This document shows positions 1,586 through 24,170 of a stretch of DNA of 30,634 nucleotides, one piece after another. The position numbers and the translations under genes were made by a program. The notes beneath the pieces are model-generated. The model was not told the DNA's origin, ran no database searches, and saw nothing but the letters and a program-made list of their open reading frames with translations. The first letter of the stretch is position 1, and the number at the start of each line of letters is the position of its first letter. Origin of the DNA: a virus (taxonomy: Duplodnaviria > Heunggongvirae > Uroviricota > Caudoviricetes); IMG/VR virus record IMGVR_UViG_2563366824_000009; one strand, 5' to 3'.

Positions 1586-1594
1586 TACTGCTCC

Positions 1595-2440
1595 TTAAAC
1601 ATGCTTTTCCAAAGTAAAAATAACCGCACCTGATGGTGTGATATCTGAAATATTACATTCAAACTCAGCAGACTTATTTGATAACCTGACCTTTCCGCCT
1701 GGCAACCTGATTACGTCAAAAACATCGAGTGCGCCATCAATACCAATAAGCCAGCGACCATTTCCTATCTTCGAGTTAGAACTATCAACAAGCCAAGATG
1801 TGCTCACACCATCAATAAACACTAAATCATCAGTATTTGATGGAACCATAGATATATCAGGAGTCCAGCGTCCGATATCTTTGAGTTCGCCCGCCTCGAG
1901 GCGGCACTTTCTAATCGTTAAAGCATTTGCCGGTTCACCATCATTACTGTTACGCATCTGGCCTTTTCCGGTTGATAACCATTCTAACGATACGCCAGTA
2001 TCAAGGGCGCAAGTGACAACCACGTCACCGGGGAAAAAATCGCGTCTAACCCAAGTGCTTATAGTGCCGGAAGATATGCCTAATAAATCTCCAAGCTCTT
2101 TTTGCAGAGTAAAACCATACGCATCGAGAATCCGACGCAGAACCGCCCTCCCTCCATTTGCCATGATTTCATCATAGAGTTGCTTACCTTTAAGCTTAGT
2201 TTTCACCACTTCAAATCTTGCATTTGCAAGCTCACCATTAATTAGCCATCGCAGGTCAGCTCCAGTATCAAGAGCACACTCAACGAAAACGTTGCTAGGG
2301 ATTACGTTTCTAGCAAGCCAGCTACTCACGTTGTTTGCATGTATGCCAAGCCTTTCGGCTAGTTCCTTTTGCTGCTTAAAGCCGTATGCAGAAAGGACAC
2401 GTTCCAATGCGGCAGACGCATTAACATCATTTTTAGACAT
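1595..2440 (-). CDS. Immunity repressor: tandem 186-CI-type HTH domains plus C-terminal S24 (LexA/CI-like) domain
   Basis: Start placed at ATG 2440 (MSKNDV...), not the ORF-track start at 2629; two internally repeated HTH modules (LERVLSAYGFKQQKELAERLGI... and LRRILDAYGFTLQKELGDLLGI...); C-terminus with DISMVP ... GKVRL resembling LexA Ser/Lys region. Confidence 0.7.
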   Translation of the reverse strand: MSKNDVNASAALERVLSAYGFKQQKELAERLGIHANNVSSWLARNVIPSNVFVECALDTGADLRWLINGELANARFEVVKTKLKGKQLYDEIMANGGRAVLRRILDAYGFTLQKELGDLLGISSGTISTWVRRDFFPGDVVVTCALDTGVSLEWLSTGKGQMRNSNDGEPANALTIRKCRLEAGELKDIGRWTPDISMVPSNTDDLVFIDGVSTSWLVDSSNSKIGNGRWLIGIDGALDVFDVIRLPGGKVRLSNKSAEFECNISDITPSGAVIFTLEKHV

Positions 2441-4494: not shown

Positions 4495-6717
4495 TTGGCT
4501 GTTCAATTCGCTTATCCGTGGAACGTCCCACGGTCGGCAATCTCCAGCCCATACCTTACTTATGAGCAACAGCATCGCCGCGACCGTATGTTCGCGGCTT
4601 TGCTGCATGCGAAAAAGGTGCTTTCTCTCCAGCCCGACTGCGTGCGGTTAGATGTTTATCGCACTGCTGCGGTGCTGGAGCAAAATCAGGGTAGTCAACG
4701 AGCCAATGCATTTTTAATCAGCTTCTGCAAAAAGGCATTGCCGCGTCTTGAACTGGTCGCAAAAAAATACGAATGCGCTGGTATCAACAGCAAGGTATCA
4801 ACCGCTGTTTTTGGAAGTCATTTTGATACTCAGCAAATGCAATATCTGTCGTCACGCATGGTTAATATGGTCGCCCGATATAACCGTCTCCCGGACATGT
4901 CGCGCGCTGATGTTGACCTGTTGGCCGCTGATATTGCTAATTTCATTCGTGGTGAACTTGCCAACATTAATGACCACGGATTCGGCGAGCTTAAAACGCT
5001 GTACACCTGGTATATTCGTGCTGGCTTTATTTCCCTCCAATTCAACGTTATCCCACCACATTGGGAGCGGGTTGAAAAAAAATATGTCGGTGCGGATGAA
5101 ATCGCACCGGCTATCGCCAAAATGTTTAACGATGGGTGGTGGCGCGGTCGTTTGCGCCGTGTTGCAGCTACGTGGCGCGAACACCTGCAAATTGCAGTCG
5201 GCAACGTCAGTAAGAAAAAAAACACTTACGCGAGTAAAAACTGCGTGACTGACTGGCGTGAACAAAAGCGCCGCACTCGTGAATTTCTCAAAGGTCTGGA
5301 TCTCGAAGACGAAGACGGCAACCGTATCAGCCTAATTGAAAAATATGATGGCTCAGTTGCTAACCCTGCGATTCGCCGCTGTGAGCTCATGACCCGCATT
5401 CGTGGGTTTGAAAACATCTGTAATGAGCTCGGTTATGTCGGTGAGTTTTACACTCTAACCGCGCCGTCAAAATATCACGCCACGACTAAAGCCGGTTACC
5501 GTAACAGCAAATGGAGCGGTGCCAGCCCGGCTGACACGCAAAACTATCTAACCGGTATCTGGGCGCGTATCCGTGCCAAACTACATCGGGAAGATGTCCG
5601 TATTTTCGGTATTCGTGTCGCCGAGCCCCATCACGACGGCACTCCACACTGGCACATGCTGATGTTCATGCTGCCGGAAGATGTTGAATATGTTCGCTCC
5701 ATCGTCCGTAAATACGCATGGAAAGAAGACCGCCACGAACTGAAAAGCGATAAATCCAAAAAAGCACGTTTCCACGCCGAGTCCATTGACCCGGAGAAAG
5801 GCAGCGCAACCGGCTATGTTGCTAAATACATTTCAAAAAATATCGACGGTTATGCTCTCGATGATGAAACCGATGATGAAAGCGGTGAGCTGCTGAAAGA
5901 GACAGCCCCCGCCGTTTCAGCATGGGCTGCGCGCTGGCACATCCGTCAGTTTCAGTTTATTGGTGGTGCGCCGGTGACGGTTTACCGTGAGTTGCGTCGC
6001 CTCGCTGATACCGAAACCGCGCACGGTCTGAGCGTTGAGTTTGCCGCCGTCCATGATGCCGCCGACGCTGGTGACTGGGCTGGTTATGTTAATGCTCAGG
6101 GTGGGCCGTTTGTCCGTCGCGATGATTTACAGGTGCGCACACTGTATGAACCGCGTACCGAGCTTAATCAGTACGGTGAGGAAACGGTATGTATTAAGGG
6201 GGTCTACGATTCCTCCATAGGTGCAGGAAGCCCGATTTTAACCCGGCTCACTCAGTGGAAGATTGTTCCGAAGCGTGCTGTTGATTTGGCCGTTGACCTT
6301 CAGGACGGCAAAGCCGTCCCTCGGAGTTCTGTCAATAACTGTACGGGAAGCGAAAGCGATCCACCGATACTGGATTTAACAAAACCACTGAGTCGGCGTG
6401 AAAGACGAGAATTAACCAACCGACTCAGGAAGCAAAAGCCAGCAGCACGGCGAAAATTCATCCACGGAACGGATGAGCAAAACGCAGCTATAGCTAAAAC
6501 TATCGATGAGATACATCTGACAACCGGCATTAATATCAGCCGGGGCGAAGCCCTGCACCTGATGGCCGGTGGTAAAAGTTGTTTTGATGGTAAATGGCTA
6601 CGCGGAACGGCCAAAGGAGAAATATTTTCCGCAGCACCATCGCATGAGGCTAAAGCTCGGAAAATCCTTAATCGTGTTGCGGCGATGGCTGAAGCATCAA
6701 AACCAATACATGAGTAA
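4495..6717 (+). CDS. A: Rolling-circle replication initiator endonuclease (P2 gpA family)
   Basis: 740 aa; TTG start preceded by GGGGGG SD; HUH-like PHWHMLMF and paired tyrosines in YVAKYISKNIDGY. Confidence 0.9.
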   Translation: MAVQFAYPWNVPRSAISSPYLTYEQQHRRDRMFAALLHAKKVLSLQPDCVRLDVYRTAAVLEQNQGSQRANAFLISFCKKALPRLELVAKKYECAGINSKVSTAVFGSHFDTQQMQYLSSRMVNMVARYNRLPDMSRADVDLLAADIANFIRGELANINDHGFGELKTLYTWYIRAGFISLQFNVIPPHWERVEKKYVGADEIAPAIAKMFNDGWWRGRLRRVAATWREHLQIAVGNVSKKKNTYASKNCVTDWREQKRRTREFLKGLDLEDEDGNRISLIEKYDGSVANPAIRRCELMTRIRGFENICNELGYVGEFYTLTAPSKYHATTKAGYRNSKWSGASPADTQNYLTGIWARIRAKLHREDVRIFGIRVAEPHHDGTPHWHMLMFMLPEDVEYVRSIVRKYAWKEDRHELKSDKSKKARFHAESIDPEKGSATGYVAKYISKNIDGYALDDETDDESGELLKETAPAVSAWAARWHIRQFQFIGGAPVTVYRELRRLADTETAHGLSVEFAAVHDAADAGDWAGYVNAQGGPFVRRDDLQVRTLYEPRTELNQYGEETVCIKGVYDSSIGAGSPILTRLTQWKIVPKRAVDLAVDLQDGKAVPRSSVNNCTGSESDPPILDLTKPLSRRERRELTNRLRKQKPAARRKFIHGTDEQNAAIAKTIDEIHLTTGINISRGEALHLMAGGKSCFDGKWLRGTAKGEIFSAAPSHEAKARKILNRVAAMAEASKPIHE

Positions 6718-6791
6718 TTCATATCCATATCATGCACATACAGCAATCGCTCTATTCGTTTTTTTTCTTCCCATCTTTTGCCAATACATGC

Positions 6792-6811
6792 TACTGTATA
6801 AATATACAGTA
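6792..6811. promoter_or_regulatory. LexA box (SOS operator) TACTGTATAAATATACAGTA
   Basis: Palindromic CTGT-N8-ACAG match; candidate -35 TTGCCA at 6778..6783 places the box over the -10 region; 20 nt upstream of ORF 6831. Confidence 0.7.
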
Positions 6812-6830
6812 ACCCTATGGGAGGGATTTC

Positions 6831-7013
6831 ATGGTTGGCGAACATTTCAGCCGAACGCAGCAAAAGTGGGCTTGTGTGCAATTTATTGCCGAGGTATCTC
6901 TGATTGCAAACTGCAAGCCATCAGACTTAAAGCTCGCGCTCACTCTCATTGCAGACCTAGCAAACAGCGAAAATAACGAAACCGAAGATGATAATTTTTA
7001 TAAGGCTGATTAG
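6831..7013 (+). CDS. N-terminal part of Tum-like SOS-induced gene (60 aa), ends at in-frame TAG
   Basis: GGGAGG SD 6 nt upstream of ATG; in the same reading frame as the DinI-like ORF, separated only by TAG plus one codon. Confidence 0.45.
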   Translation: MVGEHFSRTQQKWACVQFIAEVSLIANCKPSDLKLALTLIADLANSENNETEDDNFYKAD

Positions 7014-7016
7014 ATT

Positions 7017-7250
7017 ATGAGAATCAATATCACGTTGGATAAAGAGCAAAAAATTAGTCAGGCAACATTGGATGCACTTGAGGCTGAACTGTACCGCAAT
7101 CTTCAACCTATTTACCCAAAGACTGCTATCCGAATTCGCAAGGGCTCCGCTAATGGCGTTGAACTAAGCGGTTTGAAACTGGACGAAGATAAAAAACGAG
7201 TAATGGAAATCATGCAGCAGGTATGGGAGGACGATAGCTGGCTGCATTAA
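7017..7250 (+). CDS. DinI-family protein (DinI-like domain as in 186 Tum C-terminus)
   Basis: 77 aa; MRINITLDKEQ...DALEAELYRNLQ...RIRKGSANGVELSGLKLDEDKKRVMEIMQQVWEDDSW matches DinI family pattern and length. Confidence 0.85.
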   Translation: MRINITLDKEQKISQATLDALEAELYRNLQPIYPKTAIRIRKGSANGVELSGLKLDEDKKRVMEIMQQVWEDDSWLH

Positions 7251-7252
7251 CA

Positions 7253-7321
7253 AACGCCGCCGGTGCTGAAACTTGCTTTCAGTGCTGGCGGGGTTGAACA
7301 ACTCGCACCGCGAGGCGCTAG
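7253..7321 (+). repeat. Copy 1 of 69-nt structured 3' element (15-bp stem, loop CTTGC at 7257..7291)
   Basis: Begins 2 nt after the DinI-like stop; about 85 percent identical to copy 2; stem pairs fully only as plus-strand RNA (uses G-U pairs). Confidence 0.6.
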
Positions 7322-7445
7322 TTCTTCCTCTCAAAGTTTCTCGATGTTTTATTGGTTACACACCAGTGATGAATGGGACGTTACCTTAGCGGGTTTTATA
7401 GTGGCGCTGTGGCAGCACTAAATAAAATTCATTGAGGGCGATAAT

Positions 7446-7655
7446 ATGCATCGACTACCGGGCGAAATTCCGCAGCACAAAACTAAAAGCATCAAACTGA
7501 TGGCCATCGTTCATCGTCTGCAGCAGATAATGGTCAATGAGAATTTGACACCCGCCGAGCTGGTCGGGTGTGCCGAAATAGTCAGGGATAATTACGGCAA
7601 GCTGGATAGCATCAGCAAGCCGACACATTACTCACCGCCACCACGTCGACCATAG
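7446..7655 (+). CDS. Hypothetical small protein (variable region)
   Basis: 69 aa; GAGGG SD 5-6 nt upstream; followed directly by repeat copy 2. Confidence 0.45.
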   Translation: MHRLPGEIPQHKTKSIKLMAIVHRLQQIMVNENLTPAELVGCAEIVRDNYGKLDSISKPTHYSPPPRRP

Positions 7656-7657
7656 AT

Positions 7658-7726
7658 AACGCCGCCGGAGTTGAAACTCGCTTTCAGGTCTGGCGGGGTT
7701 GAACAACGAGCTACGCGAGGCGTTAG
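7658..7726 (+). repeat. Copy 2 of 69-nt structured 3' element (stem-loop 7662..7696)
   Basis: Begins 2 nt after the stop of ORF 7446..7655; compensatory substitutions relative to copy 1 preserve pairing. Confidence 0.6.
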
Positions 7727-7788
7727 CCGGTCATAGCGTCGCAAATACTTCAACCGTCTGCTGGTTAAATAATTCGAGGTTTTTGGAC

Positions 7789-7983
7789 ATGCAAAATCCC
7801 CTTTCATCGAAAAATGACCCGTTTGCCGATTGGGCAAAGAATCTGACTTTAATGGCTTTAAATAACGACCTGAGCTCTCGCGAGGTGGAAAGCTACACCG
7901 CAAAAATGGTCGAGCAGGCCGGTAAAGATGAGCTATCAGTCGTTATCAAACACCTGTTAAATCACATCAGAATGCGCAAATAA
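7789..7983 (+). CDS. Hypothetical small protein (variable region); possibly distant paralogue of 7446..7655
   Basis: Start moved to ATG 7789 (MQNPLSS...) with GAGG about 9 nt upstream, because the ORF-track start overlaps repeat copy 2. Confidence 0.4.
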   Translation: MQNPLSSKNDPFADWAKNLTLMALNNDLSSREVESYTAKMVEQAGKDELSVVIKHLLNHIRMRK

Positions 7984-7999
7984 GAGGAACTATATAAAT

Positions 8000-8101
8000 A
8001 TGTTATCTCTCGTTTATGAAAATCCGTGGACGACGATTTTTCTGATGATTGTTGCCAGCATGTGCCTCAACAGTGTTATTGGCGCATTGCGCGGTCATTA
8101 A
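8000..8101 (+). CDS. 33-aa hydrophobic peptide MLSLVYENPWTTIFLMIVASMCLNSVIGALRGH (small membrane peptide)
   Basis: Not in ORF track (too short); AAGAGGA at 7982..7988 before ATG 8000; single predicted TM helix; followed by terminator. Confidence 0.35.
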   Translation: MLSLVYENPWTTIFLMIVASMCLNSVIGALRGH

Positions 8102-8122
8102 TCGCGACAAAACCAGACTAAA

Positions 8123-8150
8123 GCCGGCACCCTGAATGCCGGTTTTTTTA
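8123..8150 (+). terminator. Rho-independent terminator (CCGGCA / TGCCGG stem, 7-nt loop, T7 tract)
   Basis: Stem 8124..8129 with 8137..8142 followed by TTTTTTT at 8143..8149. Confidence 0.55.
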
Positions 8151-8309
8151 TGCCATTTTTCCGCGAATTTCCCGTTTTTTAGTCGTGCATGCATCAGGTG
8201 CATGGTTTTGCATGCGTCAGTCTTGCCCGTTCTGTTCGTGCGCCGCCAGAGCTAGCGCGGATCCAGAGTTGTCATGCAACTGCATTAAAACCGCCCCATA
8301 AAGCGGGCA

Positions 8310-8328
8310 GGCGTGGCGGGGAAAGCAT
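8310..8328. other. cos cohesive-end site GGCGTGGCGGGGAAAGCAT (186/P2 type)
   Basis: 19-mer matches the P2/186 cohesive-end sequence as recalled from memory (0-2 mismatches); position between A-side genes and portal Q as in P2 prophage maps. Confidence 0.55.
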
Positions 8329-8532
8329 TGCGCGCCAGCGGTGGTGCGTATTATTAAAAATTATCGTCTGAGAACGTCGTGACGGCGCTGTAGTGGCCGG
8401 GTGTGATCGTGGGCGCGTGGTGCGTCTGTGGCGTGGTGCTAAAGGATGGGATCAGTTGCACAATTTTACGGTTTCGCTTTGGCTAATATCCATATTGAGA
8501 CTTTATGTTCCCCACAACAGTTGGAGGCTTTA

Positions 8533-8757
8533 ATGGATAACTATCATATTACAAAAGATGGCGATAAGTGGAAGTTGCAAAAAGAGGGCAATGACCGCCC
8601 TAGCAAGACCGCGACCACAAAGGCCGAGCTGATTAAAACAACATCTGAGTTTATGTCGAACAAAACAGGCTCGGTCAAAATTCACAAGGAAGATGGGAAA
8701 ATTCAGGAAGAACGCACTTATCAGAGAAAAGATGATCCTAAAAAGTCTAAAGGCTAA
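8533..8757 (+). CDS. DUF2188-like small protein
   Basis: 74 aa from ATG 8533 with GGAGG SD; pattern YHITKDGDKWKL...GSVKIHKEDGKIQEERTYQRKDDP resembles the DUF2188 family. Confidence 0.5.
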   Translation: MDNYHITKDGDKWKLQKEGNDRPSKTATTKAELIKTTSEFMSNKTGSVKIHKEDGKIQEERTYQRKDDPKKSKG

Positions 8758-8760
8758 CAT

Positions 8761-8785
8761 AGCAAAAGCCGCCAAAATGGCGGCT
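8761..8785 (-). terminator. Terminator hairpin downstream of portal gene (8-bp stem AGCCGCCA/TGGCGGCT, loop AAA)
   Basis: Perfect inverted repeat 8767..8785; T-rich on minus strand after the stem; also lies 3' of the plus-strand DUF2188 gene. Confidence 0.5.
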
Positions 8786-8795
8786 TAAAAGGTGA

Positions 8796-9842
8796 TTATT
8801 CCGGGTTGTCGAGTGTGTACTCTTTGAACCTGATGACCTCCATACCGAGCCAGTCGTTTACCTCCCTGAACCTATCCTGCAGGGGTGACAGCTCATTACG
8901 CACAAATACCTTTGCCACCTTCTCAACGTCACCGAGTGAACCGATATTCTCGGGCTTGCCGCCCATGAGCTGGAACGGTACGCGGTGCGCGTCCATCAGA
9001 TCGGCGGCACTGGCCTTCTTGATGTTGAAAAAGTCATCCTTTGTGGCGACCTCGCTCAGTGGCACGATTTTGATGCCGTCCGGTTTTCCGCCGGGAGCGT
9101 AGAAAAACAGGTTCTTAAAGTTGCCGAGCCCTTTTGAGTTGCGCATCGCCTCGCGCAGCGATTCGACGTCGGTCGCGCTCTGCGCCGGGTCAGTCACATA
9201 CATGATGTAACCCGCGTGCGCGCCGTTCTGATAATACTTGCGGCGGAACAGCGTCGCGGATTCATTCAGCCAGGCGGAATTTAGCGCGCTGAGATATTCG
9301 GGCAGGCCGTAAATCTCCTGATTAATGTCGGGCTCCAGCAGGTGAAACACGGTATCAGGCGCGAACTCGTGCGGCTGGGTGAAGTTTTCCACAAACCAGA
9401 AAATCGAATCGTCGACTCCGCGTCGGGTGTATTTGGCTGGCGAGGCCAGCAGTTTGATTAACTGGCCGGTGACACTGTGGCGCTGCTCAAGAAAGGCGTT
9501 ACCGAACACCAGATAATCGAGCGCAAAGCGGCTGAAATCCTGACGGGATAACAACGGGTGCGGAATGTAGGTGCTCGCGAGCACGTTACGCTTAACATAA
9601 ATTGGCGAGCTGTGATGCACGGCAGAGCGCAGGCTCTTTGCCAGCCCTGAGAAGCTGACCGGCGGCTCGTACCATTTGCCGTTACTGATGCACTCGACGT
9701 AATCCAGAATGTCGCGCTTATCGAGTACCGGCACCGGCTCGCCGAAGGTGAACGCTGTCGTTTTTGGCGGTGCGCTGGCGGTCAGTTGTTGTGGTTTGCT
9801 GGCCTTTTGTGCGTTGGCTTTACGGGATTTTTGTTTACCCAT
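8796..9842 (-). CDS. Q: Portal protein (P2 gpQ family)
   Basis: 348 aa (P2 Q about 344 aa); adjacent to and co-oriented with terminase P, divergent from O. Confidence 0.9.
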   Translation of the reverse strand: MGKQKSRKANAQKASKPQQLTASAPPKTTAFTFGEPVPVLDKRDILDYVECISNGKWYEPPVSFSGLAKSLRSAVHHSSPIYVKRNVLASTYIPHPLLSRQDFSRFALDYLVFGNAFLEQRHSVTGQLIKLLASPAKYTRRGVDDSIFWFVENFTQPHEFAPDTVFHLLEPDINQEIYGLPEYLSALNSAWLNESATLFRRKYYQNGAHAGYIMYVTDPAQSATDVESLREAMRNSKGLGNFKNLFFYAPGGKPDGIKIVPLSEVATKDDFFNIKKASAADLMDAHRVPFQLMGGKPENIGSLGDVEKVAKVFVRNELSPLQDRFREVNDWLGMEVIRFKEYTLDNPE

Positions 9843-9843
9843 T

Positions 9844-11613
9844 TTAGTTGAACTCCAGAATAGATTTAGGCTGCATGCCGCTACCGGCAGAAAGCGGTTC
9901 GTTTAACAGGGCGTGCATGGTCGCCCATGCGATATCGGCGTGGCTGGCTTCCTCGGTGCGGCTGGCCTCATAGGTGGCGCTGCGCCCGCTGCTGGTCATG
10001 GTTTTGCGGATGGACATAAACGACTGCGTGACGTCGGTTGCTCCGGCGTCGTACTCCAGACAGCCACGGCGAATGGTGTCTTTCGCCTTGAGTACCATTG
10101 CGGTTTTCATTTCAGGTGTGTAACGGATGCCGCGTGCCGCCGGGTAAAATGAGCGCACCAGCTGGAACACGCCGAGACCGAGGCCGGTTGCGTCAATGCC
10201 GATGTATTCGACGTTGTATTTCTCGGTCAGCTTGCGGATGCCCTCTGCCTGTGCTGCAAAATCCATGCCCTTCCACTGGTGGTGCTCCAGCATGCGGAAC
10301 TTGCCACCAGAGACCACCGGCGGCGCGAGCACGACGCACCCGGCACTGTCGCCGGTGTGTGACGGGTCGTAGCCAATCCAGACAGGACGAGAGCCGAACG
10401 GATGGTCGGCGAACGGGGCAAAGTCCTCCCATTCCTCCATCACATCGACCATGCAGCGCTGCAGCTCCTCGAACGGGAATACCGACGCTTTATCGTCGAC
10501 AAACTCGCACATAAACAGGTTCTTAAAGTCCTCATCACTGTTTTCGCGTTTGAGCTGGTCGAGGTCGAACAGGGTGCAGCCACCCGCAAGGGCGTCCTCA
10601 ATGGTGACAATCTGCCGCCACTGGCCATCGTCGCAGAGCTGGCCACCGGCGAGCGCGCTGTGACTGATGTCGATTTCGATGCGGTCGGCAATCCGGCTGC
10701 GCCCCTTGTTGAACAGCTCGCCAGACCAGAAGGGGTAAGCGCCGTGCGCCAGCGTGGAAGGTGTCGAAAAATAGGTCGAGCGCAGGTGCTTTTGCGAGGC
10801 CATGCCCGAGGCGACTTTGCGCAGTTTCTGAAAATTCGGGATCCAGAATATTTCATCGACATACAGATCGCCGTTATGGCTCTGCGCGGTGTTGGAATTG
10901 GTACCGAGAAAAATCAGTTTTGCGCCGTTGTTACCGATGACAATCGGGTCGCCAGTCAGGTCAACGTCGACCAGTCGCGCAAACTGGATGATGTATTCGC
11001 GGAACACGTAAGCCTGCGTTTTACTGGCTGATAAAAATATCTGGTTATGGCCGGTTTTGAGTGCGCGCAGCAGTGCCTCGCGGGAGAAATAGAATGTCGC
11101 GCCAATCTGGCGGGATTTGAGAATGTCACGAATACGGTGCTCCAGTCCTGCGCGGTACCACTGCAACTGGTACTCGAAAGACTGGTCGAAAAATAATTCC
11201 TCTAGTTTATCGATAGCCTCGTCGCTGAAAAAATTCTTTTTCGGCTTTTTGCGCTCCCCTTTGTTGCGGTTGGCGACGTTGGGGTTAAGGTCGGCTTCGT
11301 TGCCGGTCTGGCTGTAGCGGTTGACTCGCGCCAACCGTTCAATCTGCCGTCCGAGCAGGTCAATCTCTTTGAAATCACCCCCTGTCTTTTGCGGCTTGGC
11401 GATGAGCTGAATCAGCCTAGCCTCAAGGCTGCTTTCAACGCGGGAAATCGGCGCGATGCCGTCCCAGCCGTCGCGCTGCTTCCAGCTCTGCACGGTCGGG
11501 CGCTTGACCTGCAGCATTTCGGCAATCTGTGGCACGGAAAAACCCTGCCAGTAAAGCAGCGATGCCTGCCGTCGCGGGTCATGCAACAAGGTTGTATCGG
11601 TGGAAATGGTCAT
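9844..11613 (-). CDS. P: Terminase large (ATPase) subunit (P2 gpP family)
   Basis: 589 aa; position and length as P2 P. Confidence 0.9.
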   Translation of the reverse strand: MTISTDTTLLHDPRRQASLLYWQGFSVPQIAEMLQVKRPTVQSWKQRDGWDGIAPISRVESSLEARLIQLIAKPQKTGGDFKEIDLLGRQIERLARVNRYSQTGNEADLNPNVANRNKGERKKPKKNFFSDEAIDKLEELFFDQSFEYQLQWYRAGLEHRIRDILKSRQIGATFYFSREALLRALKTGHNQIFLSASKTQAYVFREYIIQFARLVDVDLTGDPIVIGNNGAKLIFLGTNSNTAQSHNGDLYVDEIFWIPNFQKLRKVASGMASQKHLRSTYFSTPSTLAHGAYPFWSGELFNKGRSRIADRIEIDISHSALAGGQLCDDGQWRQIVTIEDALAGGCTLFDLDQLKRENSDEDFKNLFMCEFVDDKASVFPFEELQRCMVDVMEEWEDFAPFADHPFGSRPVWIGYDPSHTGDSAGCVVLAPPVVSGGKFRMLEHHQWKGMDFAAQAEGIRKLTEKYNVEYIGIDATGLGLGVFQLVRSFYPAARGIRYTPEMKTAMVLKAKDTIRRGCLEYDAGATDVTQSFMSIRKTMTSSGRSATYEASRTEEASHADIAWATMHALLNEPLSAGSGMQPKSILEFN

Positions 11614-11778
11614 TGATGCCTCGCCGTAGTGGATTCAGGGCAAGGCTACTTAATGGCCGTCAGTGATTCGCTAAGGTGCTGTTGTGTGGGCGGTTGTCCA
11701 GTCGTCATTGGTGGTCTGGCGTGTCCTGAGTCTGGAAACTGGCGGTGACCAGTAACCTCAACCTCAGGACTCCTGACA

Positions 11779-12633
11779 ATGGCAAAAAAAGTCTCAAAAT
11801 TCTTTCGCATCGGCGTCGAGGGTGACACCTGCGACGGCCGCATTATCAGCGGCAACGATATTCAGGAAATGGCCGAATCGTTTGACCCTCGCGTCTACGG
11901 TTGCCGCATTAACCTTGAGCATATTCGCGGTCTCTTTCCTGATGGCGACTTCAAACGCTTAGGCGATGTGGTTGAACTGAAAGCTGAAATAATTGACGAC
12001 GATTCTGCGCTTAACGGCAAATGGGCGTTGTTCGCCAGAATCACCCCAACCGACGACCTGATTGCGATGAATAAAAAATTGCAGAAGGTCTACACCTCAA
12101 TGGAAATTCAGCCGAATTTTGCCAATACCGGCAAATGCTACCTCGTCGGCCTTGCTGTCACCGATGACCCGGCGAGCCTCGGCACTGAATACCTCGAATT
12201 CTGCCGCAACGCGAAGCACAACCCTCTGCAGCGCTTTAAGGCCAACCCTGAAAACGTTTTTTCCGCTGCCACGCTGGCCGAACTGGAATTTGAAGACGTT
12301 CCCGATACGGTGCTAAACAGCCTGGCAGATAAGGTGAAAGCCATTTTCAGCCGTAAGCAGGTCAGCGACGATGCGCGCCTGAATGATGTGCATGAAGCGG
12401 TGACCACCGTCAGCGAGCATGTGCAGACCAACCTCACTGCGCAGGATAAGCGTCTTTCCGCTATGGAAGCCGCACTTACCACCTTTAAACAGGAACTGAC
12501 CGGCAAGATTGAAGAAACCAGCCAGGCATTTTCCGCCCTGAAAGCCACCCTCGACAAAACCGAAAGTTTCAGCCAGCCGCGACGCACGAAAGCCAGCGGC
12601 GGTGGTGGCGATGAGCTGCTGACCGACTGCTGA
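11779..12633 (+). CDS. O: Capsid scaffolding protein (P2 gpO family)
   Basis: 284 aa, same as P2 O; first gene of rightward late operon. Confidence 0.85.
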   Translation: MAKKVSKFFRIGVEGDTCDGRIISGNDIQEMAESFDPRVYGCRINLEHIRGLFPDGDFKRLGDVVELKAEIIDDDSALNGKWALFARITPTDDLIAMNKKLQKVYTSMEIQPNFANTGKCYLVGLAVTDDPASLGTEYLEFCRNAKHNPLQRFKANPENVFSAATLAELEFEDVPDTVLNSLADKVKAIFSRKQVSDDARLNDVHEAVTTVSEHVQTNLTAQDKRLSAMEAALTTFKQELTGKIEETSQAFSALKATLDKTESFSQPRRTKASGGGGDELLTDC

Positions 12634-12709
12634 TAAACCGCAGACCAGAAACCGGGCGGTAACTCCGCCCGATGCAGTGACTAACCGATAAATTCAAACA
12701 GGAAATACT

Positions 12710-13777
12710 ATGCGCCCGGAAACCCGTTTTAAGTTCAATGCCTATCTGACCCGCGTCGCTGAGCTGAACGGCATCAGCACTGATGACGTCAGTAAAAAAT
12801 TCACCGTCGAGCCGTCCGTCACGCAAACGCTGATGAACAAAGTGCAGGAGTCATCCGCGTTTCTGCAGACGATTAACATTCTGCCGGTCGCAGAAATGAA
12901 GGGTGAGAAAATCGGCGTCGGTGTGACCGGTACTATCGCCAGCACGACCGACACCTCGGGCGATGATGAGCGTAAGACCGCAGACTTCACCGCGCTTGAG
13001 TCCAACAAGTACGAGTGCGACCAGATTAACTTTGACTTCCATCTGAAATATAAAACCCTCGACCTGTGGGCGCGTTTTCAGGACTTTCAGCGCCGCATCC
13101 GTGACGCCATTGTTAAGCGTCAGGCGCTCGATTTCATCATGGCCGGTTTTAACGGTACCACTCGCGCCGCCACCTCTGACCGCACCAAAAATCCGATGCT
13201 GCAGGATGTAGCCGTCGGCTGGCTGCAGAAATACCGCAACGAAGCCCCGACGCGTGTGATGAGCAATATCACCGATGCTGACGGTAAGGTCGTTTCGGCA
13301 GTGATTCGCGTCGGTAAAAACGGCGACTATGAGAACCTCGACGCGCTGGTGATGGATGCTACCAACAACCTGATTGACGAGGTTTATCAGGATGACCCGA
13401 AACTCGTTGCCATCGTTGGCCGTAAGCTGCTGGCCGACAAATATTTCCCGCTGGTGAACAAGCCGCAAGAAAACAGCGAAGCGCTCGCGGCAGATATCAT
13501 CATCAGCCAGAAGCGAATCGGCAACCTGCCTGCTGTGCGTGTGCCGTACTTCCCGGCGAATGCCGTGTTAGTGACAACGCTGGAAAACCTCTCTATCTAT
13601 TTCATGGATGAGAGCCACCGCCGCAGCATTGATGAAAACCCGAAAAAAGACCGCGTGGAAAACTACGAGTCAATGAATATCGACTATGTGGTCGAGGCGT
13701 ATGCCGCCGGGTGTCTGCTGGAAAACATCACCCTGGGCGATTTCACCGCACCTGCAGCACCGGAAAGCGGAGAGTAA
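12710..13777 (+). CDS. N: Major capsid protein (P2 gpN family)
   Basis: 355 aa; position between O and M. Confidence 0.9.
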   Translation: MRPETRFKFNAYLTRVAELNGISTDDVSKKFTVEPSVTQTLMNKVQESSAFLQTINILPVAEMKGEKIGVGVTGTIASTTDTSGDDERKTADFTALESNKYECDQINFDFHLKYKTLDLWARFQDFQRRIRDAIVKRQALDFIMAGFNGTTRAATSDRTKNPMLQDVAVGWLQKYRNEAPTRVMSNITDADGKVVSAVIRVGKNGDYENLDALVMDATNNLIDEVYQDDPKLVAIVGRKLLADKYFPLVNKPQENSEALAADIIISQKRIGNLPAVRVPYFPANAVLVTTLENLSIYFMDESHRRSIDENPKKDRVENYESMNIDYVVEAYAAGCLLENITLGDFTAPAAPESGE

Positions 13778-16676: not shown

Positions 16677-17106
16677 CGCCGTGCCGCAGCTCCGAAATAA
16701 TCCCGATATGCTGCGCCTTTTTGCCGACAACGGCCATACCGATTCCCGACTGGCGAGCTCGCTGTCGTTTGAAAAGGTGTACGTGCTTAACGTGGTGGTG
16801 ACCGACTTCACCGGTGACCTTGATTTGATATTCGTGCCGGTGCAGGCGTGGCTGCGTGAACATCAGCCGGACATTATGACCACCGACGACGGGCGGGAAA
16901 AAGGATTCACCTGGATTATTGATATCAATAACGACGATTCGCTCGATATCAGTATCAGCCTGAGGCTCACCGAGCGCACACTCGTCAAAGAGGTCGACGG
17001 CGCGCTGCACGTCAGCTATGCCCCTGAGCCGCCACTGCCTGAGCCGGTGACGCGCCCGGTCGAGCTGTACGTTAACGGCGAACTGGTGAGTAAGTGGGAT
17101 GAGTGA
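16639..17106 (+). CDS. R: Tail completion protein R (P2 gpR family)
   Basis: 155 aa from ATG 16639, same as P2 R; the ORF-track start at 16630 is an alternative. Confidence 0.8.
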   Translation: MQKHKSLRKALINAVPQLRNNPDMLRLFADNGHTDSRLASSLSFEKVYVLNVVVTDFTGDLDLIFVPVQAWLREHQPDIMTTDDGREKGFTWIIDINNDDSLDISISLRLTERTLVKEVDGALHVSYAPEPPLPEPVTRPVELYVNGELVSKWDE

Positions 17107-17545
17107 ATTAACCGTGCTGCAGGAACGCCTTGCCGGTCTGATTGCCAGCCTGTCACCGGCGGCACGTCGGCAAATGGCGGCTGAGATTGCGAAAAAGCTG
17201 CGTACCAGTCAGCAACAGCGTATCAAGCGCCAGCAGGCACCCGACGGCACCCCGTATGCGGCACGAAAGCGCCAGCCGGTGCGGAGCAAGAAAGGTCGGA
17301 TTAAACGTGAAATGTTCGCCAAACTGCGCACCAGTCGCTTTATGAAAGCCAAAGGCAGCGACAGTGCGGCGGTGGTGGAGTTTACCGGCAAGGTGCAGCG
17401 CATGGCGCGGGTTCATCAGTACGGCCTCAAAGACCGGCCAAACCGTAACAGCCGGGATGTGCAGTACGAGGCGCGCCCGTTGCTCGGTTTCAATAGTATA
17501 GATATGAGAATTATTGAGCGGTTAATAATTGGGGCTTTGGATTAA
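17099..17545 (+). CDS. S: Tail completion protein S (P2 gpS family), C-terminal approx 17 aa encoded by AT-rich inserted DNA
   Basis: 148 aa; conserved body, then divergent AT-rich-encoded tail NSIDMRIIERLIIGALD. Confidence 0.85.
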   Translation: MSELTVLQERLAGLIASLSPAARRQMAAEIAKKLRTSQQQRIKRQQAPDGTPYAARKRQPVRSKKGRIKREMFAKLRTSRFMKAKGSDSAAVVEFTGKVQRMARVHQYGLKDRPNRNSRDVQYEARPLLGFNSIDMRIIERLIIGALD

Positions 17546-17573
17546 TTATGATCTAATATATTATTTTGTGATG

Positions 17574-17602
17574 AGGCTGGATAAACACCAGCCTTGATTT
17601 TA
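17574..17602 (+). terminator. Hairpin (AGGCTGG / CCAGCCT, 7-nt loop) followed by T-rich run; shared 3' end of S and the convergent cassette
   Basis: Stem 17574..17580 with 17588..17594, then TGATTTTAT. Confidence 0.4.
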
Positions 17603-18244
17603 TAGTTTGAAATCTGCGTAATTATCAATAACCTCTAGAACACCGCTGATGTTGTTATCTCTGCGCCAATTCCAATTGCCATGTATCAAATTTGCATTAG
17701 AATAAAGATATCTAAGGAACTGAGATGGTAAGAGTGGTTTGTTGCATAAAAATTCATCATAACTATTACTCATATACCACACATATCCATTTTTAATGTC
17801 AAAACTTAAATTCTCACCTTCAATTTTCTTAAAGTTAATTTCTTTATTTAGAGCATTTTCAAACTCTTGCGTATAATAAACACAGTGTATATGAGCGTGA
17901 GAAATGCACCCTCCCGAACGATCTATATTTTCACCTGCTCCGCTTTCAAAGAAAATTAGAGATCTACCAGATTGGTGGATTATAAATTCATTAAGTTCTC
18001 GCAGAATCTCCTTGCCATTACTCCGGGTATCTCGATCAAGAGCAGCAAAGGAGTTGATATGCCGCTTAGGAATCAGCATCACATGCGAATTATTTAGCGG
18101 GCCAATACTAGGTACAATTAGAAAATCATTTGTTTCTGCAATGATATTTTTCTTGTCATTTACGATTTCATCGTATCCTTTGATAAGGCTAATGCCATTT
18201 ATTTCATCGCATATTCCACAGAACGAATTACAAGAATTATTCAC
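17600..18244 (-). CDS. HIT (histidine-triad) family protein with N-terminal Cys cluster and about 90-aa C-terminal extension; cargo gene
   Basis: 214 aa; GTG start with AGGAGA SD 8 nt upstream; C-x3-C-x2-C near N-terminus; HIT-like HVMLIPKRH and canonical H-phi-H-phi-H-phi-phi motif HAHIHCV (nt 17885..17899); AT-rich. Confidence 0.7.
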   Translation of the reverse strand: MNNSCNSFCGICDEINGISLIKGYDEIVNDKKNIIAETNDFLIVPSIGPLNNSHVMLIPKRHINSFAALDRDTRSNGKEILRELNEFIIHQSGRSLIFFESGAGENIDRSGGCISHAHIHCVYYTQEFENALNKEINFKKIEGENLSFDIKNGYVWYMSNSYDEFLCNKPLLPSQFLRYLYSNANLIHGNWNWRRDNNISGVLEVIDNYADFKL

Positions 18245-18803
18245 GTTTATTGTCTCCTGGTTTTTTAGGGAGCAATTTTTCAGCCCAAGATGCGAGTCGG
18301 CTTAGAACTAAGTCTGAAAAATATCCTAATATAAAACAAATCGAGAATGCAATTTTGGTCTTACCATGCCCTTTAATGGAGGATACAAACGTATCCGGAG
18401 ATAATAGCGTATAAGAACAAAAAGCCACTAAAGCAGCTAAGAACGGAATAAAAATCCTCCAGTAGAACTTATGGGATTCCCAAGGGAAATTATACTGATT
18501 GTTTTTCCCTCTAGCAGTTACTCTATAAAACCATTTTGCATTATACACCCACCCTCCAAAAAAACCGCCAAGAATAGAAAACAAAGATATTTTATTATTA
18601 TATGTCAGCTCAAAAACAAATTGAAAAAGAAAGGCGAGAATGCAACCTATTACAAAAAGAACTATTAAATAAGCAAATTCGAATTTTATTTGTTCACAAT
18701 CGTTATTAAAATAAGGCACAACCTCATCATCGCCTAAGGTTTTTTTTCTTTCAGTCATTTGCCAAACACCTTCATTTTTTACTGTGAGCCAGGGTAATTG
18801 CAT
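18237..18803 (-). CDS. Integral membrane protein (about 4 predicted TM helices), first gene of two-gene cargo operon
   Basis: About 188 aa from ATG 18803 (alternative start at 18761 with AGGTG SD); hydrophobic segments FAYLIVLFVIGCILAFLFQFVF, ISLFSILGGFFGGWVY, YWRIFIPFLAALVAFCSYTLL, KIAFSICFILGYFSDLVL; its stop overlaps the GTG start of the HIT gene. Confidence 0.65.
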   Translation of the reverse strand: MQLPWLTVKNEGVWQMTERKKTLGDDEVVPYFNNDCEQIKFEFAYLIVLFVIGCILAFLFQFVFELTYNNKISLFSILGGFFGGWVYNAKWFYRVTARGKNNQYNFPWESHKFYWRIFIPFLAALVAFCSYTLLSPDTFVSSIKGHGKTKIAFSICFILGYFSDLVLSRLASWAEKLLPKKPGDNKRE

Positions 18804-18934
18804 ATTCAACTTGGCTATTCTAATTAATTCTCACAAGATTTCATAGATGTTGAGTAGACCTCTCAGAAGTTGTTTCATTCCTCACAGAATCCATCTCGAT
18901 TGCCACTAATCTTGCCGGGCGTCATCCTTCCCAT

Positions 18935-19570
18935 ATGAAAAATCTAAATTCTTTGCAAGAAATCGCACGCGCGATCCGAAATCTCATCCGTACCGGCATC
19001 GTTAGCGACGTAGACCTCAAGGAGGGGCTATGTCGTATCCAGACCGGGGGGATGCAAACCACTTGGCTGAACTGGCTGACCACCCGAGCCGGTCGTTCGC
19101 GGACGTGGTGGGCTCCCTCGGTCGGTGAGCAGGTTCTGCTGCTGGCAATCGGTGGCGAGCTTGATACCGCTTTCGTGCTGCCGGGTATTTTCTCCGACGA
19201 TAATCCCGCCCCGTCTGCCTCGGCGGATGCGTGGCATGTGGCTTTCCCTGATGGTGCGGTCATTGAGTACGAGCCCGAAACCGGCGCGCTGACGGTCAGC
19301 GGCATAAAAACGGCCGACGTGACGGCATCGGAGTCCATCACCGCAACCGTACCGCTGGTACTGGTGAAAGCCTCGACCAGTATCACCCTCGACACCCCGG
19401 AGGTGATTTGCACCAATAAGCTAACGACGGCGACGCTTGAGGTGCAGAAAGGCGGCAAGATGAGCGGCAATATCGAACATACCGGCGGGTCACTGTCGTC
19501 TAATGGCAAGGTACTCCACACCCATAAACACCCGGGCGACAGCGGCGGGCAAACGGGGGCACCGTTATGA
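18935..19570 (+). CDS. V: Baseplate spike/assembly protein V (P2 gpV family)
   Basis: 211 aa, same as P2 V; close match to recalled P2 V sequence. Confidence 0.9.
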   Translation: MKNLNSLQEIARAIRNLIRTGIVSDVDLKEGLCRIQTGGMQTTWLNWLTTRAGRSRTWWAPSVGEQVLLLAIGGELDTAFVLPGIFSDDNPAPSASADAWHVAFPDGAVIEYEPETGALTVSGIKTADVTASESITATVPLVLVKASTSITLDTPEVICTNKLTTATLEVQKGGKMSGNIEHTGGSLSSNGKVLHTHKHPGDSGGQTGAPL

Positions 19571-22491: not shown

Positions 22492-23084
22492 TGAAACCTG
22501 TTTTTGATGAAAATGGACTGGCTACAGTGCCGGGTGATATGCGTTGTTTTTATTATGATGCAGTAACGTATGAATATACGGGCTGGTCTGATGAATATAT
22601 TAATACTGGTGTAAGTATGCCCGCCTGTTCCACTGGTATTGACCCGGGCGAAAACATTCCGGGAAAAGTGGCAGTATTTACAGGTAAGGGATGGAGCCAT
22701 GAAGAAGACCATCGCAATGAGACTGTTTACTCAATCGAAAATGGTGCTGCTGTTACAGTGGATTATATCGGTGCCATCAAAAACGGTTATGTCACGCTTT
22801 CACCGTTAACGCCATATGATAAATGGGATGGTGAGAAATGGGTGACAGATACTGAGGCACAACACGGTGCCGCAGTAGAAGCGGCAGAAGCACAGCGCCA
22901 GTCACTGATTGATGCAGCAATGGCTTCCATCAGTCTGATTCAGCTGAAATTACAGGCCGGGCGGAAGCTGACGCAGGCAGAAACCACCCGGCTTAACGCC
23001 GTGCTTGATTACATTGACGCGGTGACGGCAACAGATACGAGCACCGCGCCGGATGTCATCTGGCCTGAACTGCCGGAGGCGTAG
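22491..23084 (+). CDS. G: Tail fibre assembly protein (chaperone) for current H variant
   Basis: 197 aa; directly downstream of H; C-terminal ...TAPDVIWPELPEA. Confidence 0.8.
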   Translation: MKPVFDENGLATVPGDMRCFYYDAVTYEYTGWSDEYINTGVSMPACSTGIDPGENIPGKVAVFTGKGWSHEEDHRNETVYSIENGAAVTVDYIGAIKNGYVTLSPLTPYDKWDGEKWVTDTEAQHGAAVEAAEAQRQSLIDAAMASISLIQLKLQAGRKLTQAETTRLNAVLDYIDAVTATDTSTAPDVIWPELPEA

Positions 23085-23496
23085 GCCATTCAATATCTGG
23101 CGCACCGGAAGTATCGACCAGTTCCAGTGCGTCCAGATAATCCAGCCACAAATTATATTGCGCCAGTTCCTCACCTTTCAGGCGACCAATCGCCGCTTTA
23201 CCAGGCCATTGCTTACTGTTTATGTATTCGTTGACCTGATTAATCAATTGCTGCTTTTCCAGTTCGGCTGCGGCAATTTGTTCCTCATGAGTTGGCGGTG
23301 GAATATCAATCCATGCTGGCATTCCGTCGATGACACCTCTGTACTTTCCTTCTGGTGCTTCCTTCATAAATTCAGCGGCAGCAGTGTCGTCAATTTCGAT
23401 TCCATCATCAGGCCATTTCCCCGCTTCCTGATAAGCAATTTTAAGCTCCACAGGGAAAAACGCATTTTTATCAGCACTGAAAATATATTTCTGCAT
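23056..23496 (-). CDS. Alternative tail fibre assembly protein (for inverted orientation)
   Basis: 146 aa, convergent with G and overlapping its 3' end; C-terminus ...SGAPDIEWPTPPAVQAR parallels G C-terminus. Confidence 0.75.
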   Translation of the reverse strand: MQKYIFSADKNAFFPVELKIAYQEAGKWPDDGIEIDDTAAAEFMKEAPEGKYRGVIDGMPAWIDIPPPTHEEQIAAAELEKQQLINQVNEYINSKQWPGKAAIGRLKGEELAQYNLWLDYLDALELVDTSGAPDIEWPTPPAVQAR

Positions 23497-23498
23497 TT

Positions 23499-23852
23499 CT
23501 ACCGTCCTATCGAAATATAACTGAATCTGTATTGTTGAGAGATATCACTGATTGCCACGCGCCACGCTGAATTACTGATATGTTCAAAATTTACAGATAA
23601 AACCAGCGGTGCAGGATTCGACGGTTCTGACTGAACGGCATCAGACATGACACTGACTGAAACAAGCGGTTGATTAGGGAATGGTATAGGGAAGTGTCCA
23701 CTGATAATGCGGGTCGTGTTCCCTGAAAAAGTGCCAAACTGAACAATATATCCACCTGGTAGCCTGAACCATCCCGAGCCAGAAGCGAATGCTCCCATAT
23801 CCGGTATCTGATTTTCCCCTGTCCCCACATTCCTTCTTGCCGCTTCTCCCAA
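23499..23852 (-). CDS. Promoterless alternative tail fibre C-terminal segment (fused to H constant region after inversion)
   Basis: Open frame on minus strand running into the right crossover site; reads in frame with H across the shared GLGE codons; no independent ATG or SD. Confidence 0.7.
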   Translation of the reverse strand: MGEAARRNVGTGENQIPDMGAFASGSGWFRLPGGYIVQFGTFSGNTTRIISGHFPIPFPNQPLVSVSVMSDAVQSEPSNPAPLVLSVNFEHISNSAWRVAISDISQQYRFSYISIGR

Positions 23853-23869
23853 ACCAACCTTTTAGAAAA
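23844..23869 (-). other. Gin/Hin/Cin-type inversion crossover site (right) TTCTCCCAAACCAACCTTTTAGAAAA
   Basis: Reverse complement TTTTCTAAAAGGTTGGTTTGGGAGAA matches the left site over the right half. Confidence 0.7.
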
Positions 23870-23923
23870 TGCAGATATTCCGTTCAGCTGGCATGTTCCC
23901 GACTTTTTACCGGGTTATTTCTC

Positions 23924-24170
23924 ATGTTTATCGGTTATGTACGTGTATCAACAAATGACCAGAACACCGCATTACAGCGAAATGAACTGGAGTGCGCAGG
24001 ATGTGAGCTGATTTTCGAAGATAAAATCAGCGGCAAAACATCAATCAGACTGGCCGGGGCTAAAGAGGTTACTCAGAACCTTGTCAGAGGGCGATACGCT
24101 TGTGGTCTGGAAACTGGATCGCCTCGGGTATCTCAACGCTATACAAACAATTTCCCGCATCCGTTGCTGA
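23924..24170 (+). pseudogene. Serine DNA invertase (Gin/Pin/Hin family) remnant: frameshifted and 3'-truncated
   Basis: MFIGYVRVSTNDQNTALQRNELECAGCELIFEDKISGKTS in frame, then homology (DWPGLKRLL...GDTLVVWKLDRLG) continues in another frame and stops; about 110 C-terminal codons including the DNA-binding domain are absent. Confidence 0.75.

Follow-up and report, generated by a model that had tools for sequence, protein, structure and literature searches.

A portable two-gene cassette of a HIT/CwfJ-type protein and a four-helix membrane protein in a P2-like prophage: a candidate defence or exclusion module

In P4-like satellites, a system composed of a HAD-like hydrolase and a transmembrane (TM) protein blocks phage T7 (Rousset et al. 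2022, PMC9122126). HIT chemistry has so far entered bacterial defence only as an unexplained accessory: ThsC, a HIT-domain accessory of what PADLOC terms 'Thoeris type II' (PMC8565338), is the sole HIT-domain protein linked to defence in the literature searched. In eukaryotes, the CwfJ module assists Dbr1 (PMC6461851, PMC4105757), and in the human intron-lariat spliceosome the CwfJ module of CWF19L2 clamps the 2'-5' lariat junction, its activity being unestablished (PMC6461851). In this study, we examined a two-gene cassette, encoding a HIT protein with CwfJ-type features and a small TM protein, in the viral DNA of IMG/VR record IMGVR_UViG_2563366824_000009. This whole stretch of 30,634 nt, here called the window, is a 186-type (P2-like) prophage, and the cassette lies between its tail genes S and V. 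With a rough probability of 45%, we read the cassette as a system for defence or exclusion directed against phages (or mobile elements), carried as cargo and expressed in the lysogen; it would most likely be of the type that couples a cytosolic nucleotide enzyme to a small membrane protein.

A first-pass annotation of the window had described AT-rich two-gene cargo, antisense to the late genes, between S (ending at 17545) and V (starting at 18935). The open reading frame (ORF) list and Pfam confirmed both gene limits, and the GC content is 0.31-0.39 over positions 17450-18950 compared with ~0.6 on either side. The membrane gene is the upstream one of the two. Its TAA stop (18239-18237) falls within an 8-nt overlap with the HIT gene (18237-18244), and the GTG start of the latter stands 8 nt past an AGGAGA Shine-Dalgarno sequence, all as initially annotated; three other enterobacterial copies have ATG in place of GTG. 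By this overlap and the internal AGGAGA, the HIT gene is translationally coupled to the TM gene. The length of the membrane protein had to be revised. Longer forms from ATG 18803 (the 188 aa called at first) or TTG 18809 (ORF 18237..18809) are available, but the start is most likely ATG 18758, giving 173 aa, because this Met (M16 of the long form) is the conserved start in homologues, RefSeq agrees, and it is the exact point at which DNA homology to a copy from another phage site breaks off. Compared with the Enterobacter copy, the proportions of nonsynonymous and synonymous differences (pN/pS) were 0.08/0.67 for the TM gene and 0.13/0.78 for the HIT gene, with synonymous sites near saturation; both genes are under strong purifying selection. 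A 133-aa plus-strand ORF (17904-18305) was rejected as an artefact, since it finds matches elsewhere only as the antisense of conserved coding sequence.

The assignment of the 214-aa protein to the HIT family was borne out by profiles and by fold. Pfam scores exceeded the cut-offs (in brackets) for HIT with 23.4 bits (21.5), DcpS_C with 28.5 (24) and CwfJ_C_1 with 28.4 (21). The last match (PF04677; E-value of 1.6e-6) lies above the gathering score and is precomputed for most homologues too. A family-profile search of the PDB matched solved HIT proteins (best 8.7e-6), and the protein has the HIT alpha/beta fold. Its core carries the motif HVMLIPKRH and the triad HAHIHCV at residues 116-122. 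Across 80 family sequences, there is no variation at H54, H62, C113, H116, H118 and H120 and almost none at C9 and C12, whereas C5 is not conserved; of the C-x3-C-x2-C cluster noted originally, C9 and C12 hold and C5 drops out. The C9-x2-C12 pair is the ordinary CxxC of HIT/CwfJ proteins, and the conservation of catalytic residues indicates that the protein is catalytically competent.

Database names give little functional resolution. NCBIfam matches to the HIT protein stay far under their cut-offs and no characterised HIT branch fits, and the full-length matches in PHROGs are two tiny families of 'unknown function' with no functional name. RefSeq lists the pair as 'HIT family protein' and 'hypothetical protein', and some JGI homologue records read Ap4A hydrolase or ATP adenylyltransferase, names that would suit an ordinary housekeeping gene or a metabolic moron that takes no part in genetic conflict. 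We consider such a role most improbable: the genes are rare and extremely patchy in distribution, they always occur as a two-gene unit, carried by mobile DNA or located in variable regions, and a conserved metabolic operon was never seen around them in the contexts examined.

The ~90 C-terminal residues of the HIT protein, at first taken to belong to no obvious family, are CwfJ_C_2-like by structure. The C-terminal third is as conserved as the rest among the 80 family members (GY, N-P-LPSQFLRY-Y and WNWRR), and the window protein carries the PSQFLR and WNWRR motifs. The protein has a two-lobed C_1+C_2 structure; by structure, its C-terminal part is the counterpart of CwfJ_C_2 and the whole a stand-alone CwfJ-type module. 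A profile of residues 124-214 found no CWF19 chain or other real match in the PDB and no CwfJ_C_2 or other real match in Pfam. Yeast Drn1 requires C269, C272, H311, H319, H366, H368, R459 and W474 for function (PMC4105757), and these pairs are spaced as in the window protein when residue numbers, not an alignment, are compared: C269-x2-C272 corresponds to C9-x2-C12, H311-x7-H319 to H54-x7-H62, H366-x-H368 to H116-x-H118, and R459-x14-W474 to R178-x14-W193, with R178 and W193 likewise invariant in the HIT family of the cassette. The likeness raises the idea that the HIT protein is a prokaryotic, catalytically intact CwfJ counterpart that would recognise 2'-5'-linked or branched nucleic acid or nucleotide and be coupled to new membrane effectors. 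Ligands could then include retron msDNA, a group II intron lariat, signals of the 2'-5' oligoadenylate type, or a phage ligation or capping intermediate. We regard this specific version as improbable; if true, it would constitute a new class of immune system and would give the CWF19/Drn1 module a biochemical activity and an origin in bacterial conflict systems.

The membrane protein belongs to an undescribed family. None of its 120 homologues has a Pfam domain, and the protein has no PADLOC or NCBIfam assignment. The AlphaFold2 (AF2) model consists of four long helices (predicted local distance difference test [pLDDT] score of 80.7), in keeping with the roughly four hydrophobic helices annotated before, and hydropathy and charge place both termini and the second loop in the cytoplasm. 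This loop is basic (KWFYRVTARGK...Q..FPW..HKFYWR in the window protein), and together with its flanks it is nearly invariant across homologues (GG..GGW..KWFYRVTARG...Q....W..HK.YWR...P). Fold searches returned generic helical bundles only and no structural relative. An exhaustive profile search revealed a wider TM superfamily of 346 representatives at E ≤ 1e-3, 178 at E ≤ 1e-10 and 20 at E ≤ 1e-30, of which ten longer members also have no Pfam domain. Identity to the same genomes was 53-56% for the TM protein versus 42-46% for the HIT protein.

The very high conservation of the TM protein and its specific charged loop suggest ligand handling more than pore formation, which suits a function in lysogenic conversion or the envelope. 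The HIT protein would here act at the membrane on a lipid- or sugar-linked nucleotide (GalT-type or CDP-diacylglycerol pyrophosphatase-like), and the TM protein would serve as anchor, transporter or flippase; the two would change the surface or the membrane, for instance by receptor masking or by classical superinfection exclusion at DNA entry. Surface-modifying genes are known to occupy prophage cargo sites as well, and the Burkholderia pair adjoins phosphonate and lipid-modification genes. The best structural relatives, however, are nucleic-acid-binding CwfJ modules and not GalT or Cdh, no glycosyltransferase or GtrA-type signal was found with Pfam, the other contexts are not envelope loci, and the MazG- and PRTase-like partners of extended relatives (see below) point to soluble nucleotides. 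An envelope function is therefore unlikely in our view.

The two genes are strictly associated. The TM gene stands directly upstream of the HIT gene in 26/26 fetched loci with DNA across Proteobacteria, which span Escherichia, Enterobacter, Pantoea, Vibrio, Pseudomonas, Burkholderia, Halomonas, Thalassospira, Herbaspirillum and uncultured viral contigs, and searching IMG/VR with either protein led to the same contigs. Co-occurrence in phage and defence settings and not in housekeeping operons, which the first-pass annotation had named as a check of its proposal, was thus found. A distant TM relative (E-value of 7.5e-21, ~21% identical) adjoins a HIT protein of the family in reversed gene order; this HIT protein aligns with hhalign at 99.4% (E-value of 1.3e-21, 187 columns) and keeps HAHLH, PSQF.R and WNWR. 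Because the pair persists in reversed order, the association is old and survives rearrangement.

Extended relatives have additional partners. The pair in reversed order belongs to a four-gene operon on contig L121 (4982-9107; also L122) for proteins of 112 aa, 224 aa (CwfJ/HIT), 194 aa (4-TM) and 841 aa, beside genes for an IS110 transposase and an SNF2 helicase. The 841-aa partner gives only weak signals for phosphoribosyltransferase (PRTase; E-value of 0.0043) and PRA-PH/MazG-like domains (E-value of 0.12); its family counts 9 members in 5.8 billion proteins, two of the nine labelled MazG-superfamily pyrophosphatases by JGI. On contig L117 lies a further distant TM relative, P0230, whose neighbour has sub-threshold PRA-PH/MazG matches (1272-2300, minus strand; E-values of 0.15-0.26); they recall the MazG-like signal of the 841-aa protein but are too weak to rely on. 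At L118:4452-6544 (also L119 and L120), a TM relative (E-value of 1e-41) is followed by a 423-aa non-HIT protein with no Pfam domain, in a neighbourhood with AbiEi/AbiEii and an ATPase_2 protein. To judge from this one case, the TM module may combine with other partners.

The cassette is a portable, self-contained two-gene module of ~1.2 kb. P2-like prophages of E. coli (8 of 5,426 complete genomes) and of Enterobacter carry it in their S-V gap, and Pantoea-type P2-like phages (L023 and L034-36) carry it in the gap between gpA and portal genes, which is the old/tin hotspot as defined in PMC9122126 and 10.1101/2024.10.15.618418. In a lambda-like Pseudomonas prophage, where it is widespread, it stands directly beside the S24 CI-type repressor gene, and in Vibrio it adjoins an inovirus prophage. 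In Halomonas meridiana (L011:2751-9167) it lies immediately downstream of a Wadjet-like JetABCD cluster (DUF3584/JetC-like, MksE/JetB, an unknown protein and DUF7281). The same locus continues with a metallo-beta-lactamase-fold protein that matches the Pfam family of Anti-Pycsar Apyc1. Using strict search patterns, we found a single locus in ~100,000 species-representative genomes, a figure that shows rarity and carries no statistics.

The cassette is also kept where the phage has decayed, as in prophage remnants of Enterobacter and Pantoea, the latter having little else left. In a near-identical E. coli prophage variant (L020, IMG/VR 2802429228_000007, ~11700-13450), the lysis region is joined directly to the replication gene A and all head, terminase and portal genes are deleted, with the cassette intact. 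In Thalassospira (L015), it lies between 142-bp direct repeats (9162-9303 and 10695-10836; 93% identical) that correspond to the 3' end of a TetR (RutR-like) gene, and a 49-aa TetR_C_3 fragment remains downstream. This configuration resembles an integration that duplicates or restores the end of its target gene, much as the window island supplies a new 3' end of S. A separate module was observed in the decayed P2-like remnant of Enterobacter sp. FB, in which an AAA_15/AAA_21 ATPase gene and an HNH gene (Septu-like) sit next to ogr (L008:4023-5754); in this strain, two cargo modules have outlived the phage.

Survival beyond the surrounding prophage, tight coupling of genes that always occur together, scattered chromosomal sites with no defence neighbours, and the 142-bp duplication of a target gene end, which is typical of a self-propagating insert, are what an addiction module would show. 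In such a selfish, toxin-antitoxin (TA)-like module, the TM protein would be a latent toxin held inactive by the HIT protein, or the reverse, and the pair would persist as its loss is harmful. A DNA-binding or autoregulatory domain is missing, though, and a mere antidote would need neither the full triad nor the large conserved ligand lobe. In L033, moreover, the HIT gene is frameshifted by a 1-nt indel in a G-run beside an intact TM gene, but this is a single read-assembled contig and uninformative. We consider addiction rather unlikely; many TA-like pairs are abortive-infection defences, so that it overlaps with the defence reading.

The same distribution bears on whether the cassette could act against host immunity. 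HIT enzymes hydrolyse dinucleotides and nucleotide adducts, and signal-degrading enzymes are known from phages. HIT chemistry touches immune signalling because ThsC accompanies some Thoeris systems (PMC8565338), and a HIT protein might destroy a host immune nucleotide signal or repair a defence-made adduct to the benefit of the carrier phage. This nucleotide-degrading option of the original annotation fits poorly because the pair includes an obligate membrane partner and persists in dead prophages and at non-phage chromosomal sites, including one beside a host defence system. In addition, the window cassette opposes the late operon and has its own control region, and at the DNA level it occurs in 0 of 50,697 deposited phage genomes. 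We therefore rate counter-defence as very unlikely.

The S-V gap itself proved to be a site of variable cargo. In a survey of 76 IMG/VR contigs with close V relatives (L037-L116), the gap was empty (<150 bp) in 42 and held inserts of 0.8-3 kb in the other 34. All 23 sampled inserts were AT-rich (GC 0.32-0.40), and they encode 21 unrelated protein clusters. One insert (L094) carries the DRT pair RT_UG17 (1.9e-158) and SLATT (2.8e-54), and the PADLOC candidates PDC-S59 and PDC-S31 are found among the sister cargo. Other inserts encode DUF4062, PIN_12, DUF4365, a GTPase with DUF697, a pentapeptide/ion-channel protein, ~10 proteins with no assignment and P2 Orf30 itself. The cassette resides in a variable, AT-rich, lysogen-side slot that holds known defence genes in sister elements. 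The hotspot literature searched names old/tin, Z/fun and a tail-cI site, and the S-V gap is not among them.

If the cassette is a defence or exclusion system, its own promoter would drive the operon in the gap that separates the terminator of S from the late promoter of V, in antisense orientation to the late genes, which are silent. The HIT protein would dock on the conserved basic cytoplasmic loop of the TM protein, and its zinc-stabilised, two-lobed CwfJ cleft would bind a nucleotide-linked ligand that appears or disappears in infection. Candidates are a nucleoside monophosphate (NMP) phosphoanhydride, a phosphoramidate, or a 5'-adenylylated, capped or 2'-5'-linked nucleic-acid end. Turnover through a covalent His118-NMP intermediate could then switch the TM partner, and the membrane would be compromised (abortive infection) or genome entry blocked.

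Several observations weigh against this reading. The assignment to defence is guilt by location. Neither protein matched any family at E ≤ 1 in PADLOC-DB v2.0.0 (5027 models, the ThsC model included), and distant relatives and their partners gave 0 matches as well. The chromosomal contexts in Pseudomonas 9AZ, Burkholderia and Thalassospira have no obvious defence neighbours. The TM protein is more conserved than the enzyme, an unusual pattern for simple pore-forming effectors that points to a specific role in binding, transport or catalysis. E. coli often silences AT-rich DNA of this sort, and expression in the lysogen is thus only presumed; sigma-70-like sites are no more frequent than in shuffled sequence, which puts the promoter call at chance level. 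As for 2'-5' chemistry, the connection is drawn by analogy with CWF19L2 (PMC6461851).

The features of the locus are listed in Table 1. An island with 100% identity occurs in E. coli AST217, whose prophage is inserted between yfiB and rplS. The GC content of the window island is 0.344-0.348 compared with 0.532 for the rest of the window, and no Rfam match was found in this island. Because homology to phage 186 breaks at 17492 and returns at 18963, the island represents 1,470 bp in place of 153 bp at the S(O)-V(orf32) junction of 186 (blastn), where the two homologues are 69 bp apart. The cargo was rightly placed between S and V, but the replaced segment extends into both genes: in addition to the end of S, the first ~9 codons of V are island-supplied. 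The Phage_tail_S match covers residues 4-147 of the 148 of the window S protein. Around the island, a search for flanking repeats gave short chance matches only, and the island was probably exchanged by recombination within the flanking S and V genes.

Table 1. Features of the cassette, its island and the adjoining late genes (window positions unless a contig is given)
Feature	Position	Strand	Basis
HIT protein gene, 214 aa, GTG start	17600..18244	minus	ORF list; Pfam
173-aa four-TM protein gene (most likely start)	18237..18758	minus	Conserved Met start, RefSeq, 120 homologues, AF2, topology, pN/pS
AGGAGA Shine-Dalgarno sequence of the HIT gene, within the 3' end of the membrane gene	18253..18258	minus	Direct sequence reading
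AT-rich island	17493..18962	no strand	blastn against 186: homology stops 17492, restarts 18963
Tail-completion gene S (186 gene O homologue), last of its late operon	17099..17545	plus	Pfam Phage_tail_S (PF05069) 1.2e-34; 186 and P2 annotation
Island-supplied new 3' end of S, last 17 codons and stop	17493..17545	plus	186 alignment diverges, S frame open
Baseplate spike gene V, first of the next late operon	18935..19570	plus	Pfam Phage_base_V, Phage_spike, Apex; P2 annotation
GC-rich hairpin and T-run, likely S (O) late-operon terminator	17572..17596	plus	Terminator scan and sequence
Divergent control region	18759..18934	no strand	Position only
Candidate sigma-70 promoter, ATGAAA-16-TAGAAT, 9/12 matches	18817..18844	minus	Consensus scan only
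Examples of occupied S-V gaps	L094:2229-4203, L105:3647-4891, L085:3636-4811		

The hairpin with its T-run separates the convergent S and HIT genes, and the annotated O-operon terminator of P2 has the equivalent position. DNA homology to the L023 copy begins at 17575, within the hairpin region, and the hairpin belongs to the portable unit. At the other end, the divergent control region would by its position have to contain two promoters, that of the cassette on the minus strand and the late promoter for the V operon on the plus strand. The P2 counterpart of this stretch, from orf30 to V, includes the pV activator site and the start of transcription; in the window, no Ogr/B-type activator site for the V promoter was recognised by eye in 18804-18934. 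The candidate cassette promoter in Table 1 is weak evidence because shuffles give as many such sites. The first-pass annotation had correctly placed a low-GC, nonessential orf30 at the S-V junction of P2; this gene occupies the same site. Since orf30 is bounded in P2 by the annotated terminator of the O operon and by the activator site of pV, the S-V slot is an inter-operon gap, and cargo placed in it leaves late transcription uninterrupted.

The TM-HIT pair is the main cargo of the window prophage. Its own old/tin hotspot, from gene A to portal (6717-8796), holds small ORFs only (DinI, DUF2188 and hypotheticals, according to RefSeq for the identical prophage). Another classic cargo position, between the integrase and CI repressor genes, carries a DUF2511 gene (1248-1586, minus strand); it falls in a second low-GC stretch (1201-1900), where 500-nt windows are under 0.42 GC. 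The tail-fibre region (~22807-24170; RefSeq, L001 25262-26625) has a tail-fibre assembly gene on the opposite strand, together with a pseudogene of a truncated tail protein and a recombinase gene with a frameshift, and looks like a disabled invertible host-range segment.

If the defence reading is correct, a HIT/CwfJ enzyme and an undescribed 4-TM family would join the bacterial immune repertoire, and the S-V gap, which holds ~20 more uncharacterised cargos in our small sample, would be a further productive hotspot of P2-like phages besides old/tin and Z/fun. With its small size of 1.2 kb and E. coli as a native host, the cassette lends itself to direct testing. Whatever its phenotype, a compact bacterial CwfJ_C_1+C_2 protein with an intact triad offers a tractable model of the eukaryotic module, which sits on the intron lariat; CWF19L1 is mutated in human ataxia.

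Compared with known proteins, the HIT protein is closest to the C-terminal module of CWF19L2, CWF19L1, S. pombe Cwf19 and yeast Drn1, with which it shares a CwfJ_C_1 match over the cut-off and, going by residue numbers, apparently also the spacing of paired residues. Unlike these, it stands alone as a bacterial protein, lacks N-terminal parts of the Dbr1-like, zinc-finger or RRM type, has a membrane protein as its partner and moves with prophages, and its C-terminal lobe has no sequence match to CwfJ_C_2 or CWF19 chains; the full HxHxH is invariant in its family, whereas the eukaryotic module has no established catalysis. With the HIT superfamily at large (Hint, Fhit, aprataxin, DcpS and GalT/Ap4A phosphorylase) it has the triad, the N-terminal CxxC and the alpha/beta core in common, but differs in the extra conserved lobe of ~90 aa and in the obligate membrane partner. 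ThsC differs in that the window proteins have no PADLOC match and genes for TIR, ThsA and ThsB are absent near the cassette.

With respect to whole systems, no HIT or CwfJ protein with a membrane partner was tied to phage defence in the literature searched, in line with the first annotation, to which no named anti-phage system of this composition was known. P2 Orf30 has the same site and the same minus-strand orientation, its gene being flanked by the O-operon terminator and the pV promoter, and is likewise AT-rich and nonessential; it is, however, a single 261-aa membrane-type protein unrelated to either window protein (blastp E ≥ 3), and it counts among the 21 or more different cargos of the gap. 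The hydrolase-TM system of P4 is also a two-gene combination of a small hydrolase and a membrane protein in a P2/P4-family hotspot. Identity with it was rejected, since that system is P4-borne, in the psu-int hotspot, and its enzyme has a HAD and not a HIT fold. CBASS and Pycsar systems with TM effectors and DRT UG17+SLATT, the last of which occupies the same S-V gap in the sister phage L094, resemble the cassette in placing a nucleotide-handling enzyme beside a small multi-pass membrane protein. In contrast to these pairs, the cassette has no cyclase, CD-NTase, reverse transcriptase or SLATT homology and no soluble sensor domain, and its membrane gene comes first and is unusually conserved. 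An enzyme joined to a small membrane protein in a prophage hotspot is thus a known architecture, and both components of the cassette are new to it.

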